Below are positions 4,111 through 10,923 of a stretch of DNA of 64,000 nucleotides, piece by piece. The notes beneath the pieces were generated by a model that saw only the letters and a program-made list of their open reading frames with translations, was not told the origin of the DNA and ran no database searches. Source of the DNA: Microbotryum violaceum (Eukaryota); NCBI GenBank assembly GCA_001244265.2, contig CDLV01000007.1, positions 1,488,001-1,552,000 of the forward strand. Direction: 5' to 3'. Position 1 is the first letter of the stretch. Each line of letters opens with the position of its first letter. The translations under genes and the position numbers were made by a program.

Positions 4111-6435
4111 TCACGACGGGCCACTCGGTCGACTGCGCCCAGTTTTGAGGTCCGTATTCGCGATCGCCCGAAGCAAATCCCTGGCATCCGGACCTGGAGT
4201 AGCCGTCGTCGTCGTCGACCCCGACCCAGAAGGAACCGCCAACCCCAATTGAGCGACCCCACCGACGACAGGCCCATTCGAAGCATCCTTATTCGTCGTC
4301 GTTGAAGCTGTTGACGCTAAGCCTCTTGTCGTTTCCAAACTGAGGGCACGATGGGCTTGTCGGATCCTCTCGTCGACAAAAGCGGAAGAGACGTTGGTGA
4401 ATTGCGTCAAGCGGTGGGTGAGGACGCGGAATTGAGCCAATTCGAACCGAACGTCCGAGAGCGAGGCCAAGGTTTCGTCTTCGATGACGTCGGAGGCTCG
4501 GCCCTTGCCCTTGTCCGATGGCGGGTTGGAGAGGATTGATGCGCCTAGCTCGAAGGCTTGTCCGATCGACGTCGGTGTTGGGGTCGAGAGGTCGAAGCTA
4601 AGGGAGGTCTCTTCGATCGTTGGGAGCTCCAGAGCACGCGCTTGAGCACGTCGATGGGCAAAGTCGTTGTAGATTGGTTCGAGCTCTTTCCGTCGCTCTT
4701 GCTCTTTGCCGATGCTGTGAAATGTCAATTCGCTGACGTCAGTCACGTGCTTTCAGGGCAACCGAGCTGACCTCGAAACACTCACGCATCGTGGTTGGCT
4801 TTGCATTCGATGAGTCGCGCCGTGTTGCTTTCGTTCTGAGGGTGTTGCGGCAACCCATCGTTTGCGGATGAATCACTGGTCCCAGGCTAGAAATGCATGA
4901 ACCGAGTCAGCTCTTGTGCGCCCACCCCGAAGCGGGCGCGTCCGCTACTCACCTGAAACGGCACCGAGACGTCGATACTCGAATCGCAAATCCCATTGAT
5001 GAACTGATCGATCGCTGCACTCGCACAGGCCCGCGAATTGGGTGAGACCGAGGTCGAGGCAAACACCCGATCGCGTTGCCGCTGGGACGTCCAAGACAAG
5101 ATGCTCCGCAGTCGTCGAGCCACGGGGTCTTCGGCGTTGGTTTGTCGATACAGTTTGTCATCGGGTACTGAAACATGAGGTGGGACTGCCGATAGAATGC
5201 ACTCGCATCTCATTAGTTTTCAGGCGTCTTGAGTCCGTTTCGAGCAAAGTGCGATGCTCACCTTCGAACCCTCCGCCAATACTACTCCCTCTCCGACCAC
5301 TTCCCTTCACACTGCTTCTTCGTACCGACATGCCCGGTGTCGCCGGTGTCGCGTCCCCCTGCCGAAACGCTCGGTTCTTGTTCTGCACGGGCGTCTCGGC
5401 GGCATGGATCGGCGCCAAATGCCCGACTGCTCGGTTCGGTGGAGACAGTCTTGATGTTGAAGCGATCGGAGCCGTTTCATCGACTCGCATGGACATGGCT
5501 GCTCGCGGCGCGTTCTACAAAGTGAGGACAGTGCGCAGACGAAGGTCCGTCAGCCTTCGCGTCGATCGACCTGCCTTCGTAAATACTACTGACTTTGGAC
5601 TTTGGCGCATTTGCACGCCCCTGTTTCAGTGCCCGACTCGTGGAAGGCGGGTTTTGAGGTGTGGGAGGGTTGGTTGTGAACGCGAACGGCTGGGCATCAT
5701 CGGTGGACGTGTTGCCGAGTGTATGCGCAAAGTTGGGCTTGGCCTTGGCCGCTTGAGTTTGCTGTGCCGCCGCTCGAGGCTGTTCGGAGAGGTGAAAGTG
5801 ATCCCAAGATTCAGTAAGTCTCCATGGCACACGCTCGCATCCCCGTGACTGACCACAAAGCCGGTCCGGGACGTCGAAGCGATCGCGTGGGAAGCTGAGC
5901 CGCCTTCGCCTCCTCCGATCTCCGGTGCATCAGTCCTTTGTCGTTTCCCTCTGGGTGATGTACGCGTCCCCGTCCTTGTAAAGGTACCCCACGCTGCATC
6001 TTTATTTTGGTCGGGGTGGTCACGGCCGTCCTCGTCCTCGTCGCGTGCTCGGGATTGAGGGACGACCTTGGCCCCTCTCGGTGGTGGTGGTGCTGCAGCA
6101 GCCAAGGCAGCGTGTTTGGACGGTGATACGGTCCGTTGTCTCGAGCTCGTGGTAGGCGGTGGTGGTGGAAGGGGTGAATCTCTGTTGGTGCCTTGACGTG
6201 CCGATCTCCGGGGTGATTCGATCGTCGCGTGGCCTGTGGTCGCTATTGCTGCGCCTCTTGATGTGCCCGTCGTCGTGGCGTTACTCCCCGTCGACTTGGC
6301 GTACTTGTTGTTGAATGGTGGTGGTGCACTGTCCGAGTCCGAGTCGTCGAGAGGCGCATCGTACAGATCCCGGTCGCGCACCTCGGACTTGCGACTCATC
6401 AACTTGGTCTGGCGCGCCGCTCGTGGAGCCGGCAT
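4111..6435 (-). CDS. DSN1: Kinetochore Mis12-complex subunit Dsn1/Mis13-like, multi-exon
   Basis: Disordered N-terminus, then ETPVQNKNRAFR..RRSSVKGSGRRGSSI and PHVSVPDDKLYRQTNAEDPVARRLRSILSW, typical of fungal Mis13/Dsn1. The C-terminus is DARDLLRAI. Confidence 0.75.
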
Positions 6436-7100
6436 GGTGGCAGGAATAGGTGGCGGTTGATTGGGCGAGAAAGTCTACTCTTGGTTTAGCTGGCAATGTC
6501 GTAGGCTCGCGGATGGCGTTATACAGAGCGCTTGTCGAGACGGGGAAACCTGCTGGTGCGGTTGAATGACGAAGGCTCGGGTGGGTGTCTCCAGGCTGGT
6601 GTTCGCGGATGCTTGCAGGTAATCACCACGATCGAAGAAAGGAATCTGTACAGAGCTTGACCCGAAGAAACACAATCGCGCGGTAATTTGAGGGGCTTCC
6701 CGACTGTCCGAGTTCATGCAAAGTCGAGTTGGTGGGTGGCAGCGGGGCAGGCGTCGCGTGAATGCATGCAGAGAGGGGAGGGCGGTGTGCCAGAAATCAA
6801 AACAAGCCGATCGGCCCGCGCGCGCGCTCGGACCTCTCACCTCACCCAAGATCGTCCGCGGCAACTGGCGCGCGCTCGTGAGTCGTCGATCGACCACGGA
6901 AGTGCATTGCATTTGACTGCCAGGATTGTATCTAGCGCTAACAAGAGCGCAGCTGTGACGTTTAAATTTCAGGTACGAGTAAGAAGGCGGCCGTGTGTTT
7001 GAGCAAGCGAGACTCGTTCCGAAATGATCAGCCCGAGATTTGAGACTCCAGCCACTGCATGCACTGCAGGCTCGGTGCAAGAGCTACCAATTTACGACAG

Positions 7101-8185
7101 CTGAAAAAACAAAAAAAATCCCCGAGTACCAGACGTTGGCACCGAAGAGTGGCCATATCTCATCCAACCCGTTCTAACCTTCGTGGACTACCAGCCTCCA
7201 GATTCGACGAGCGAAGGTTCGACTACGCGCGGAGGGAGTGTGCGGTCCGGTTCAATTGAACGTCACGGACATGGCTGAAGAGACACAAGGGAGAGGTGTG
7301 GCCGTGTGCACAAGAGAACCGTCTGCGCGCCCTAGTTAAAGAAACGCCTCCGGAAAGAAAGGTGGAACGATGTCGTTAAGGACAGACGTGCTGGCACTGC
7401 TGGAAGGTAGCGCACCGGCGGAACGTTCTGGGTCACGTCAAAGCCATCCCCTGCATGCCATTTCAACAGGCTTGAGCTGGGGGAGATGTAGGCAAGAACC
7501 AAACTAAAGCTCTGCCGACAACAAAAAAATGAGCGCGTGGAGTGCCACGAGCACAAGCTACAAGACATTATTGGGGAATTGTAAACTCACGCGACATCCG
7601 ATGACTGCGATCGATGAGTAAGGGCCGAGTGCTGTATGCCACCGCAAGGTGGACTTCAAGGGGGTTGACGGTAACATTCGTTGACATGCTTTGTAGCGAG
7701 GAGTACGACCAAGAGTGTGTGCCACCAACTTAAGTAAAGGTGGACTTCCGAGGTTGCCTCACGAGCTTGTGAGGACTTTGCTGCATCCCGAGACTTCCTT
7801 CTCTGCAAACGTTTCAAATGCAACCTTAGGTTTCACTTCTGATATTCTTTAGTCTGATTTCTGGCTGCTGGGTGCTGCTTGGCTCGGGCGACTTCACTTT
7901 GCTTGACACGCGAACCATTGGACTGACAACATGGTTCAGTCCTGGGTCGCGAGCTCCGCGCATGTGGTGAAGAGCTTGAGCTCCTGTCGAGTGCGACTTC
8001 ACTTTGATACACTCCGAGCAAGAATAGGAAGGGGACAGAAGTATTCCTGAATCACTTCTAGCACATCGCACGATATACGAAAAAAAATCGACGCTACTAA
8101 CGCCTCTTACGACCGTTCTACAGATCATTGCGAAATTCCAGCTCGGTCGACACGTGATAGACGACATTAATACTGGGAAACCTAC
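7101..8185 (-). ncRNA. Candidate ~1.1 kb structured RNA or structured long intron, unassigned
   Basis: Long-range end-to-end helix (8179-8145 with 7119-7169) rich in G-U pairs on the minus strand, several internal hairpins and a three-copy AAGU-CC..GG-CA stem motif. It begins at AG|GTAGGT and ends in U8-G-U6-CAG. No convincing ORF. Confidence 0.35.
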
Positions 8186-8263
8186 CTAATCGCGCCAACG
8201 ACGGGTCAACCAAGAAGCCAAAAAACACCCTGTATTGTAATAATTTGGACCTCCACCTGACCC

Positions 8264-8269
8264 TTTATA
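8264..8269 (-). promoter_or_regulatory. TATAAA box upstream of the candidate structured RNA
   Basis: tttata on the + strand, about 80 nt upstream of the donor-like site at 8185. Confidence 0.35.
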
Positions 8270-8707
8270 TCGTGGCCTTGAAAATCAGCAGCGGCCGTAT
8301 CGGGCTTTGGGGAAGCGCTTGCGCGTGCGCTTGAGGCTGCGCAAGTGCCACCCCCTCGACGAGGTTTCGCCGAATAACACAGGCCGAATCCACGACTCGA
8401 TCCCAGGCGCCCAGACAGCGCGTCCGCCAGTTAAGTTCAAACTTAATCAACAGTATCAACGTGTTGATATACGTTACAACTTATTAACCCAGCCCTACGC
8501 GTCAAACTGGAGTGGCGACTCAGCATGTCTCAGCATGGTCCTACTCAGACCCAAACTCTCCTATCTCTTTTAGTATTTAGATCGGGAAAACTACTGCTAT
8601 TTTCCGGTGTTTCTTGGCAGTCAAAGCAGTCAGTGAGCAGGGTCCTCTGCATCGGCCTTTCAGAGGAGCAATATCTTTCTGCTCTTGTTCTCATCTGACT
8701 GAACATC

Positions 8708-10405
8708 ATGAAAGGCGGATTGACCCGACGCAAAGTGAGTAGAGTAGTCGAGCACCGAGCGAATCTCTCGGCGCCAAAAGCTAGCTCAACGGAGCGAGAG
8801 GGTCCAAGCGCTCACCTCTTGCCTCTCGTCGTCATCAGTCATCGCATTTCCACGCCAACCGACACCCACCTTCCATATCCGGGTGGATTGAGGAAGGCTC
8901 TACTCCTTCTGCTGCTGTTAATTCGTCGTTAGGTGGTTCGTCGGATACCATGGGTGATGCGAGAGTGAGTTGCTGGTGAGGTGGAGGGACGCGTCGGAGG
9001 GCCGAGCTGACTTTTGCTTACTCGGGGGCGTGGTGATTACGGTCCATTCAGACAGCAATACATATGAACGCATCAGGTGCTGTTGGATCTCAACTATCCG
9101 TTCCCAACTTACCATCAGCGGGTACGTTTCCGCCACCCTGGACGGACGAAACCCTCCCCCACTCGTCCCCATCACCGGCTGGTCTTAATCATCCTCCGAC
9201 CCTCGCTCACAGGTTCTGCCCTAGGTGTAGCATTGGAGAACCTACGTGGTACGGTTGAAAAACGCATAGCAACGTTGCAATACCTCAAGCGAGCACATGG
9301 GGGGAAACTTTACTGGTTCAACGTCGGTCTTTCGGGGAATCGACGAACAATCGATGAGGCTGCAGCTGATATTGGTTCAAGTGTTTGACAGACGGTTTTA
9401 CTCACTCCGGAGTTGGTCAAGGCTCAATTCGAACACGGAAGAATGAGAGCACGGTATGTCCTTCGTCCTGCGCGATGGATGTTCTCATCGCTGAAACGGT
9501 CGCTCTTTCCCACCGTGATCACAGAACCACCCGTTTCGCCGTGTTAGGCATGTCCCTCTCCGCGATCCTCGACATCGCCCCAGCCCAAGACTTCCTCAAA
9601 AGCTTGCTCTCCCTCGTCCAAGAATTTGATAATGTACCTGATGATCGATTCGACAGGAATCGAAACGTGAGTTGAGGTCCAGGACTGGATGATCTCGTGC
9701 CCCGGAATTTGACATCTTCAATGGTTTTGCCTCGTCCATAGCCCAAGACGTTGTTTCGGGGTACAACGAGGAGTAGAAAAGGTATGTCGTTGGCCGGGTC
9801 GGATTTCATAGGATTGCAGGAAGGGAGCGACGCTTCAAATCTCTTTGTTCCCAATATCGTACGTCCTCGACCTCTCCGAGAATACCTATCCCTGATCATA
9901 CTGACACGATCGACTTTCTCGAACGCCATCTTCTAGCCTTTCGAACTCGACTACAATCAAGTCTTCATCACGACCTGCGATCTCCTCGTTGAGATCTACC
10001 AAAAAATACTCGCGCTGCTCGGTCCTTCATCGTCGGCAAGTGCGACACAAGCGACTGCTTCCTCGGGAGCTTCGACGACAAGCGCCTCGACGTCGAGTCG
10101 AATACTCACTTCTGGGAGTGAGAGGTCTTCTGCATCGCCTGGTTCGGGCTTGAGTCCTGCGTTGGCGGATGTGGTTGTCAAGACTGATGCGAGGTTGAAG
10201 GTGAGTTGGCCCACACGTGAAACTGAGGATGACCGACCTTTTTTCCTGCAACACTGATCCCTTCTATATGACATTGGCCCAGAAAATCATCGTCATGGTC
10301 TCGAAAGAATTCGACACGTGCGCCCGAGCGGCGATCAAGAACGAGTTGAACGCGTTGAGCGGAGGAGGAGACTGGGCTCAGTGGGGCGGAGATGAGGGGG
10401 CCTGA
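8708..10405 (+). CDS. Conserved hypothetical fungal protein, multi-exon
   Basis: Exons join via GT-AG introns: MKGGLTRRK|..LENLRGTVEKRIATLQYLKRAHGGKLYWFN|..RFAVLGMSLSAILDI..DFLKSLLSLVQEFD|..PFELDYNQVFITTCDLLVEIYQKI..VVVKTDARLK|KIIVMVSKEFD..GDEGA*. Confidence 0.8.
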
Positions 10406-10923
10406 GTTGGAGTGGCTTGAAGTGTGCATGTGTTTTCCTTGGCTGGGTTGAGCAGTGCTTGTGTTACCGAACGTGTTGTATTTCTTCATTTGACTCGCCG
10501 CTTCTTGGTGTATGTATGTCCGAGGCGCTTGAGCTGCGCAGGCGCGGGCGGCACAGCCTCCTCGGCTCGGGCGGTTCGGCAGGGCGAAGGTTTGATCGCG
10601 CCGAGAGTAGATACCTTGTAGCATTTTGAGAGCTTGATGAATTTCCTCTGCTCTGATGCTGTTCAGTTCTGGGAGCACGATGATCACTGTGCTGTGGAAC
10701 GAACTGACTTTGATAATCGGCAGCGAATTCAAGGATTCAGGAATCGATTGCCACGGTTTGCCTGCGCACACAAGACTCGCACAAGTTGGCCCGAAGCGGA
10801 CGAAATGCGACGCGTGTCACTCTGCGCTCGCTCACTGACTGTCGACTGACCTTGACCATCCATCATACACCACACCCACACCCCGCACCCTTCGAGCTAC
10901 CCATCGGTCTTACCACCCTCGCC

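Follow-up and report, generated by a model that had tools for sequence, protein, structure and literature searches.

The interval described here (7101-8269) is part of a ~2-kb gap (6724 to 8708, 1983 nt) between a minus-strand DSN1/Mis13-like gene and a divergent plus-strand gene. In the available part of the source on M. lychnidis-dioicae, the mean intergenic length of that species is given as 502 nt (PMC4469406); the gap is approximately four times as long as this mean and thus has room for an unannotated unit. Throughout, "the window" refers to the whole 64-kb stretch of DNA that was analysed. RNA evidence consisted of contigs from public sequencing runs, 10 of which contain part or all of the interval; the contigs of four of these runs were examined over positions 5600-9600, and the strand of the RNA was inferred from splice signals. 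Run X10 contains spliced RNA: the five segments skipped by its contigs have GT..AG or CT..AC at their ends, and leaving them out restores an open frame that matches annotated proteins of relatives.

Genes and features at the locus

The mRNA of the DSN1-like gene was recovered from X10 as one 3403-nt contig that ends at 6724; an intron of 74 nt (5780-5853, with plus-strand ends CT..AC) is spliced out of it. The assignment of this minus-strand gene comes from a weak match to the Mis13/DSN1 profile (E 4e-4; 20.2 bits, under the 23.5-bit cutoff). On the other side of the gap, the plus-strand mRNA was represented by a 967-nt X10 contig that begins at 8893 and from which four GT..AG introns of 69-91 nt had been removed. 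With these introns taken out, a single open frame runs from the ATG at 8950 and matches annotated proteins of relatives, whose own models of this gene begin further up, at the ATG at 8708. One exon of the gene was 100% identical to the hypothetical protein MVLG_05616, and every match of its exon in the Protein Atlas scored < 0.9. A proposed 30-nt intron at 9782-9811 was rejected as coding, as annotated relatives retain its 10 residues. Exon pieces of the neighbouring genes were also searched against Pfam, and that search returned no credible match. Elsewhere in the window we observed a piece of a Vps1-type dynamin (GED and Dynamin_M domains) with 99% identity to M. lychnidis-dioicae and 98% identity to M. 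silenes-dioicae. Together with the MVLG_05616 match, these identities place the genome in an anther-smut fungus of the genus Microbotryum and not in Ustilago.

The features of the gap and of its plus-strand neighbour were as follows.

8708/8950-10406, plus strand: divergent spliced gene, counterpart of MVLG_05616, defined by an X10 contig and by the annotation of relatives.
8264-8269, minus strand: TATAAA, a possible core promoter of a minus-strand unit; the annotated ATG of the divergent gene (8708) is 439 nt away.
8145-8185, minus strand: donor-like AG/GTAGGT (G of the GT at 8185) together with the 5' arm of a proposed end helix; present in the sequence, with pairing not above chance.
7803-7927, minus strand: candidate upstream intron of 125 nt with the donor GTCAGT at 7927, one of three donor-like sites 5' of the exon (8185, 8101 and 7927).
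7803-7850, minus strand: 3' splice site (AG at 7804-7803) with its upstream tract; the context ends ...GTTTGCAG directly 5' of 7802.
7591-7802, minus strand: internal exon of 212 nt that appears in contigs as a closed (back-spliced) circle, with the back-joint in X10, X2 and X3.
7716-7748, minus strand: hairpin module 1, which repeats module 2 but has a longer loop; the same 12-nt and 11-nt blocks were found by alignment.
7633-7657, minus strand: hairpin module 2, a 5-bp CCACC/GGUGG stem with flanks shared with module 1; repeat blocks of 12 nt (100%) and 11 nt (91%).
7585-7590, minus strand: 5' splice site GTGAGT directly after the exon, which fits GTNNGT, the pattern of all five donors that the RNA contigs revealed.
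7512-7590, minus strand: candidate downstream intron of 79 nt, a length within the range of 69-91 nt; its acceptor ends ...TTGTTGTCGGCAG, with 11/15 pyrimidines.
7101-7169, minus strand: 3' arm of the proposed end helix and a U-rich run ending in CAG (7119-7101), a putative acceptor or Sm site; an X10 contig passes 7101 unspliced.
7087-7348, strand not given by the contig: low-depth contig of X10 (262 nt, depth 3), continuous across 7101.

An internal exon probably occurs as a closed 212-nt circle

A back-joint leading from 7802 to 7591 (back 212 nt) was present in three of the four examined runs, which belong to two studies (X10, X2 and X3, with X2 and X3 presumed to be RNA). The word depth at the joint was 39.3 in X10, 35.6 in X2 and 21.2 in X3. 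Each of these runs contained one 242-nt contig over 7591-7802 in which 30 nt were repeated at both ends (212 + 30); the three contigs were opened at different points of the cycle, and none had flanking sequence attached. We take a contig of this length to be a closed cycle of 212 31-letter words, on the assumption that the assembler prints a cycle with such an overlap. The joint showed no microhomology ('both' = 0), and its shorter sides measured 100, 58 and 94 nt. The window itself is colinear across 7591-7802, and the DNA-like run X1 has no cover of these positions.

On the minus strand, the genome reads ...CAG/exon/GTGAGT around this segment, and its plus-strand borders carry no splice signals. 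By simple arithmetic, AG and GTNNGT would stand at exactly both borders by chance in approximately 1/4096 cases per strand. All five introns that were seen in RNA contigs measured 69-91 nt and had donors of the form GTNNGT. Moreover, TTGAAAC, located 12-18 nt upstream of the exon start, is similar to the CTGAAAC of an intron seen in RNA. Since closed contigs join 7802 to 7591 and the borders read CAG/ and /GTGAGT, the segment is read as an internal exon back-spliced into a 212-nt circle. At contig level, this is the signature of an exonic circRNA from the minus strand, in which the spliceosome has joined the tail of the exon (7802 to 7591) to its head. The circle neither begins with GT nor ends with AG, and it is thus not an intron circle.

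Cover of the surrounding stretch differed among runs. In X10, positions 6725-7086, 7349-7590 and 7803-8892 had no cover among the pieces listed, which is neutral as evidence, and the low-depth contig at 7087-7348 could be pre-RNA or DNA carry-over. In X2 and X3, both of which are filed under another organism label, the circle was the sole contig on the 4-kb stretch among the pieces listed.

As a side observation, finding the circle as the sole listed contig in X2 and X3 is not obviously expected of a mere low-level by-product.

The circular exon shows no coding signal and contains a duplicated hairpin module

The longest ATG-initiated ORF of the circle, which crosses the junction, encodes 77 aa, and 136 of 1000 shuffles had one as long or longer. 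Three stops were counted over all frames, a number equalled or undercut in 93/1000 shuffles. In the wider interval, a search for homologues of a 113-aa ORF was empty and gave no credible Pfam match, and a 78-aa ORF had only four weak multi-stretch matches (best E 9e-5). GC content was 0.51-0.53, compared with 0.62 for the DSN1-like exon. The ORF and stop figures of the circle are unremarkable, and the exon carries no coding signal. An ORF that would span the circular exon and the next exon was discarded, as it vanishes with the acceptor at 7512 or at 7504.

The exon does hold a degenerate internal duplication, consisting of the two hairpin modules listed above, which was noticed post hoc. Also found post hoc was a cluster of GAAGTC: five of the window's 41 sites for this motif lie on the minus strand within 7652-8000, where 0.22 would be expected by arithmetic. 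The duplicated module and the motif cluster could indicate a function. When folded as a circle, the exon had a minimum free energy (MFE) of -42.7, whereas its shuffles averaged -51.2 ± 4.5; of these 300 shuffles, 295 folded as well or better (z +1.86). Searches of the locus revealed no tandem repeats and no inverted repeat elements. A transposon relic was rejected, as blastn of the 64-kb window found no second copy. A metagenome scan for relatives of the locus produced one match (L001, 2450 nt), which had 62% identity over 26 residues; with 564 nt of sequence upstream of the match, it fell short of the syntenic region.

A proposed non-coding host unit with short candidate introns

The exon borders imply flanking introns, for which the candidates listed above can be proposed. 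Downstream, the 79-nt candidate has an alternative acceptor at 7477. Upstream, the candidate donor GTCAGT at 7927 is identical to the donor of the DSN1-like intron that was seen in RNA. A search for a clear CTRAY branch motif in either candidate flanking intron found none, and among the joints listed no RNA junction used any of these candidate sites. The best reading of the locus is that of an unannotated non-coding minus-strand transcription unit in the gap, with the exonic circRNA as its accumulating product. TATAAA, a possible core promoter of this unit, lies 439 nt from the divergent start, a position that points to a promoter region shared by two divergent transcripts; the linear host is predicted to start near 8235.

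A different layout had been put forward in a preliminary description of this DNA, in which a 1085-nt intron (8185-7101), perhaps in the leader of DSN1, was held together by paired ends. This proposal fared poorly, as the introns seen in RNA measure 69-91 nt, the X10 contig is unspliced at 7101 and the DSN1-like contig ends at 6724. The same description had remarked on the lack of a canonical CTRAC branch point, and we likewise found no CTRAY-like motif within 60 nt upstream of 7101. The predicted joint 8186 to 7100 was absent from the joints listed; contigs drop rare forms, and its absence is therefore neutral as evidence.

Folding and pairing of the ends are at chance level or below

Each sequence motif named in the preliminary description was read back at its coordinates on the minus strand, including the two pairs of arms (8179-8164 with 7136-7119, and 8159-8145 with 7169-7156), and short hairpins do exist at 7173-7183/7212-7222, 7920-7942 and 8037-8059. 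The larger claim, of a structured RNA of ~1.1 kb with paired ends, was not borne out: fold energy and arm pairing were at chance or worse. The MFE of the minus strand of 7101-8190 was -322.4 kcal/mol, compared with -337.7 ± 7.3 in 42 dinucleotide shuffles, none of which had a higher energy (z +2.11); for the same segment read on the plus strand, z was +0.87. The description had itself named a fold energy no better than that of dinucleotide shuffles as grounds for abandoning the idea, and this is what was found. The structured RNA with paired ends is rejected on this ground, although the signals listed for it do exist in the sequence.

The two proposed arms form a duplex of -25.6 kcal/mol. In a scan of the flanks (1530 pairs of 50-nt windows), the proposed arms were outside the 12 best pairs; the best pair reached -34.9, and of 29 shuffled pairs of flanks, 27 did as well or better. 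RNAduplex on the full-length flanks gave a result that 181/200 shuffles equalled, a comparison that is uninformative because whole lengths were paired. The MFE fold of 7101-8190 does not contain the proposed end helix, and the Boltzmann ensemble contains an expected 2.9 base pairs between the arms. The long-range helix, the Sm-like tail and the telomerase analogy are not needed for anything that was observed.

Telomerase RNA and other known families

A comparison with telomerase RNA requires the telomere repeat, which for M. lychnidis-dioicae is TTAGGG in the available part of the source (PMC4469406). Any template of at least 8 nt for TTAGGG must include CCCTAA or TAACCC, and neither word occurs on either strand of 7000-8300, in agreement with the earlier remark that a template was absent. 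The TAACCC closest to this stretch, at 8485 of the plus strand, is outside any repeat context. In the Ustilaginales, the telomerase template is UAACCCUAA according to the parts available of two sources (PMC9564094, PMC10035886). The best match to TAACCCTAA at the locus has 2 mismatches, and 74 such matches were counted in the window against 71.4 expected, which is chance level. That frame of reference is in any case inapplicable, because the genome is that of Microbotryum.

Rfam returned 0 matches at gathering thresholds over the 64 kb; sub-threshold, five matches fell in 6000-9500 with E values of 1-5.6, far under the gathering scores. A host of box C/D snoRNAs was considered and rejected: the C box has the consensus RUGAUGA, none of the window's 33 RTGATGA sites lies in 7000-8300, and no snoRNA family reached threshold. 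The telomerase-like RNA of the preliminary description was therefore given up, as it has no TTAGGG template and no Rfam match, and it folds worse than 42/42 shuffles. From the broader proposal of a stable minus-strand lncRNA, a spliced non-coding RNA with a stable 212-nt product stands; telomerase RNA, pairing of the ends and an intron of 1 kb are not supported.

Origin of the circle and competing explanations

We consider it probable that a non-coding minus-strand unit lies in the gap, and that its exon 7802 to 7591 is made into an exonic circRNA as a by-product of splicing. The linear host would be a low-level divergent transcript from a promoter region that it may have in common with the plus-strand gene. 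During its splicing, the spliceosome would join the end of the exon to its own start without pairing of the flanking RNA, whether in a direct back-splicing step over short introns or, as in S. pombe, when a lariat that contains the exon is spliced again, and the circle would then accumulate as it has no ends for exonucleases. With flank complementarity at chance and short introns, an animal-style mechanism of intron pairing is not indicated. The step from 8185 to 7101 may be one possible exon-skipping event that feeds the lariat route. Most circRNAs are splicing by-products and, on such priors, this circle is most likely a by-product without sequence-specific function.

That exon-skipping event could also be the main route, in which case joining of the 8185 donor to the 7101 acceptor, helped by pairing of the ends, would yield a 1085-nt lariat that is re-spliced internally to release the circle. 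The donor GTAGGT fits GTNNGT, among the candidate acceptors the one at 7101 has the most pyrimidine-rich tract (14/15), the arms can pair at the energy given above, and a lariat route is established in S. pombe in the part of the source available (PMC4479058). However, this pairing is at chance, no CTRAY-like motif lies within 60 nt 5' of 7101, the introns seen are far shorter (69-91 nt), a contig passes 7101 unspliced, and nearer donors (7927, 8101) and acceptors (7512, 7477) are available, so that we hold this route to be quite unlikely. We assign a similarly low probability to the proposal that the exons are alternative leader exons of the DSN1/Mis13-like gene, with the circle as a side product of leader splicing. 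That gene is directly downstream on the same strand, and no terminator or poly(A) site is defined in between; its 3403-nt mRNA contig, however, ends at 6724 with no AG before it (contigs cannot show true starts), and no contig among the pieces listed connects the DSN1-like mRNA with 7591 or with anywhere else in the interval.

A functional circle is unlikely too, even if several of the observations would suit it. Here the locus would be a dedicated circRNA gene whose linear RNA is a short-lived precursor, and the 212-nt circle, with its two GAAGUCCACC...GGUGGCA hairpin modules, would be an abundant and stable regulatory platform or sponge for a protein or small RNA. In three runs from two studies the circle closes with no branches retained, it is the sole contig on the 4-kb stretch in X2 and X3 (among the pieces listed), the hairpin module is duplicated with near-identical flanks of 12 nt and 11 nt, and five minus-strand GAAGTC sites fall within 350 nt where 0.22 are expected. 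If this were true, the circle would be abundant enough to assemble alone in runs under another organism label. Set against these points, the circle is less structured than its shuffles (z +1.86; 295/300), the motif cluster was chosen post hoc, and circRNAs in general are mostly by-products of splicing. It is very unlikely that the back-joint arose with no circle at all, through trans-splicing of two precursors, a tandem duplication in DNA, or an artefact of reverse transcription or assembly. Contigs cannot tell a circle from a tandem repeat of the exon, and X2 and X3 are presumed rather than proven RNA; yet the joint falls exactly at canonical splice sites without microhomology and recurs in two studies, and the contigs are exactly 212 + 30 nt long without flanks, whereas a DNA duplication would carry flanks and ignore exon borders. 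We regard it as extremely improbable that the interval encodes a telomerase RNA or another long, highly structured stable ncRNA. The stretch is long and ORF-poor and has a TATA box and U-rich runs, but it contains no permutation of a 1.5-repeat TTAGGG template, Rfam is empty, and the fold is weaker than in all 42 shuffles.

Relation to known circular and non-coding RNAs

The exonic circRNA proposed here has its closest parallels in other fungi. Circles of S. pombe arise from lariats that contain the exon, with no inverted repeats involved, and circularisation is more efficient for longer exons, as described in the part of the source that was available (Barrett, Wang and Salzman 2015, PMC4479058). 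Like the S. pombe mrps16 circle of that source, the Microbotryum circle consists of a single internal exon joined at canonical splice sites, in a fungus whose introns are short, and the locus has no notable flank complementarity. At 212 nt the exon is longer than the internal exons of the neighbouring gene (61-143 nt), which is in line with the preference for longer exons in S. pombe (PMC4479058, in the same part). In contrast to mrps16, which that account gives as a protein-coding host (PMC4479058), the host in Microbotryum is an unannotated non-coding unit. Animal circRNAs with complementary flanking introns, to the extent that the same source covers them (PMC4479058), resemble the paired flanks of the preliminary description; unlike in those, the flanks here pair no better than shuffles (27/29) and hold no inverted repeat elements.

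Among basidiomycetes, 15 of the 73 circRNAs of C. neoformans are intergenic, and their mean read counts exceed those of the exonic ones, in the part of the report available (PMC5867839). The Microbotryum circle is likewise a basidiomycete circle outside annotated genes, but it is known from closed contigs, whereas CIRI junction counts and outward PCR were used in C. neoformans according to that part (PMC5867839). Compared with the intergenic circRNAs of C. neoformans, splice signals define a proper exon in Microbotryum. We take Microbotryum to belong to the Pucciniomycotina, a subphylum different from that of C. neoformans.

The locus shares with the telomerase RNA of Ustilago maydis, as far as the available parts of the two sources describe it (PMC9564094, PMC10035886), the character of a ~1.2-kb fungal non-coding locus processed from a Pol II transcript. 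It differs from that RNA in that UAACCCUAA is absent, no Emi1-like ORF lies upstream on the same strand, and there is no excess of structure. The telomerase-like lncRNA reading is thereby replaced by a concrete molecule with RNA evidence at contig level.

We found no circRNA of Microbotryum in the full-text literature; the locus might already be listed in supplementary material, such as the PMC4469406 tables of genes and ncRNAs or the circRNA lists of other papers. CircRNAs are established in fungi, including basidiomycetes, and the present one is the first for Microbotryum in the literature found and not a new kind of element. It supplies a spliced non-coding unit, missing from the annotation, in a fungus that is a well-studied model for plant castration and for how mating-type chromosomes evolve. 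As its exon and introns are short and its flanks do not pair, it also offers a compact natural test case for exon circularisation in fungi. In terms of method, self-closing contigs in assemblies of public runs flagged a circRNA without recourse to raw reads.

Genes flanking the interval

Transcribed features of the two flanking genes, from RNA contigs and annotation.
5780–5853, minus strand: intron of the DSN1/Mis13-like gene, 74 nt (RNA contig)
6436–6724, minus strand: leader of the DSN1/Mis13-like gene, at least 289 nt (RNA contig)
8708–10406, plus strand: gene equal to hypothetical protein MVLG_05616

The plus-strand gene was conserved across Microbotryomycetes, and its product was without any Pfam family. 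Four introns were borne out by an RNA contig, which began at 8893. The annotated Microbotryum models begin at ATG 8708 and include an additional exon; by contrast, the start codon of the Leucosporidium homologue corresponds to ATG 8950. Therefore, judged from this comparison of gene models, the annotated N-terminal extension may be over-predicted.

On the other side of the interval, the leader of the DSN1/Mis13-like gene, at no less than the length listed, exceeded the mean 5′ UTR of 183 nt given for M. lychnidis-dioicae (PMC4469406). Palindromic alternating CG runs were present at 6813–6834 and 6868–6878, approximately 100–150 nt upstream of where the DSN1-like mRNA contig ends, and may represent a promoter element. 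A search with the DSN1-like protein also matched a 2450-nt metagenome contig (L001), which encodes a Mis13-like stretch at 565–642 with 62% identity to the window's protein over 26 residues and presumably derives from a related basidiomycete yeast.

Motif frequencies

Telomere-like hexamers were scarce over the whole window, with CCCTAA found 4 times (14.05 expected) and TAACCC 5 times (13.5 expected); each count was equalled or exceeded in 100 of 100 shuffles. RTGATGA was over-represented (33 occurrences in the whole window cf. 17.15 expected), a number reached by 0 of 100 shuffles. Several of these sites overlap in tandem within coding regions, so the excess probably has a codon-related or repeat-related origin.

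In a 350-nt stretch (7652–8000) overlapping the 212-nt exon of the probable circular RNA (7591–7802), the minus strand carried five GAAGTC sites, cf. 0.22 predicted by the window-wide rate. A perfect direct repeat of 14 nt (7888–7901 and 7993–8006, spacing 105 nt) was observed inside the putative upstream intron.
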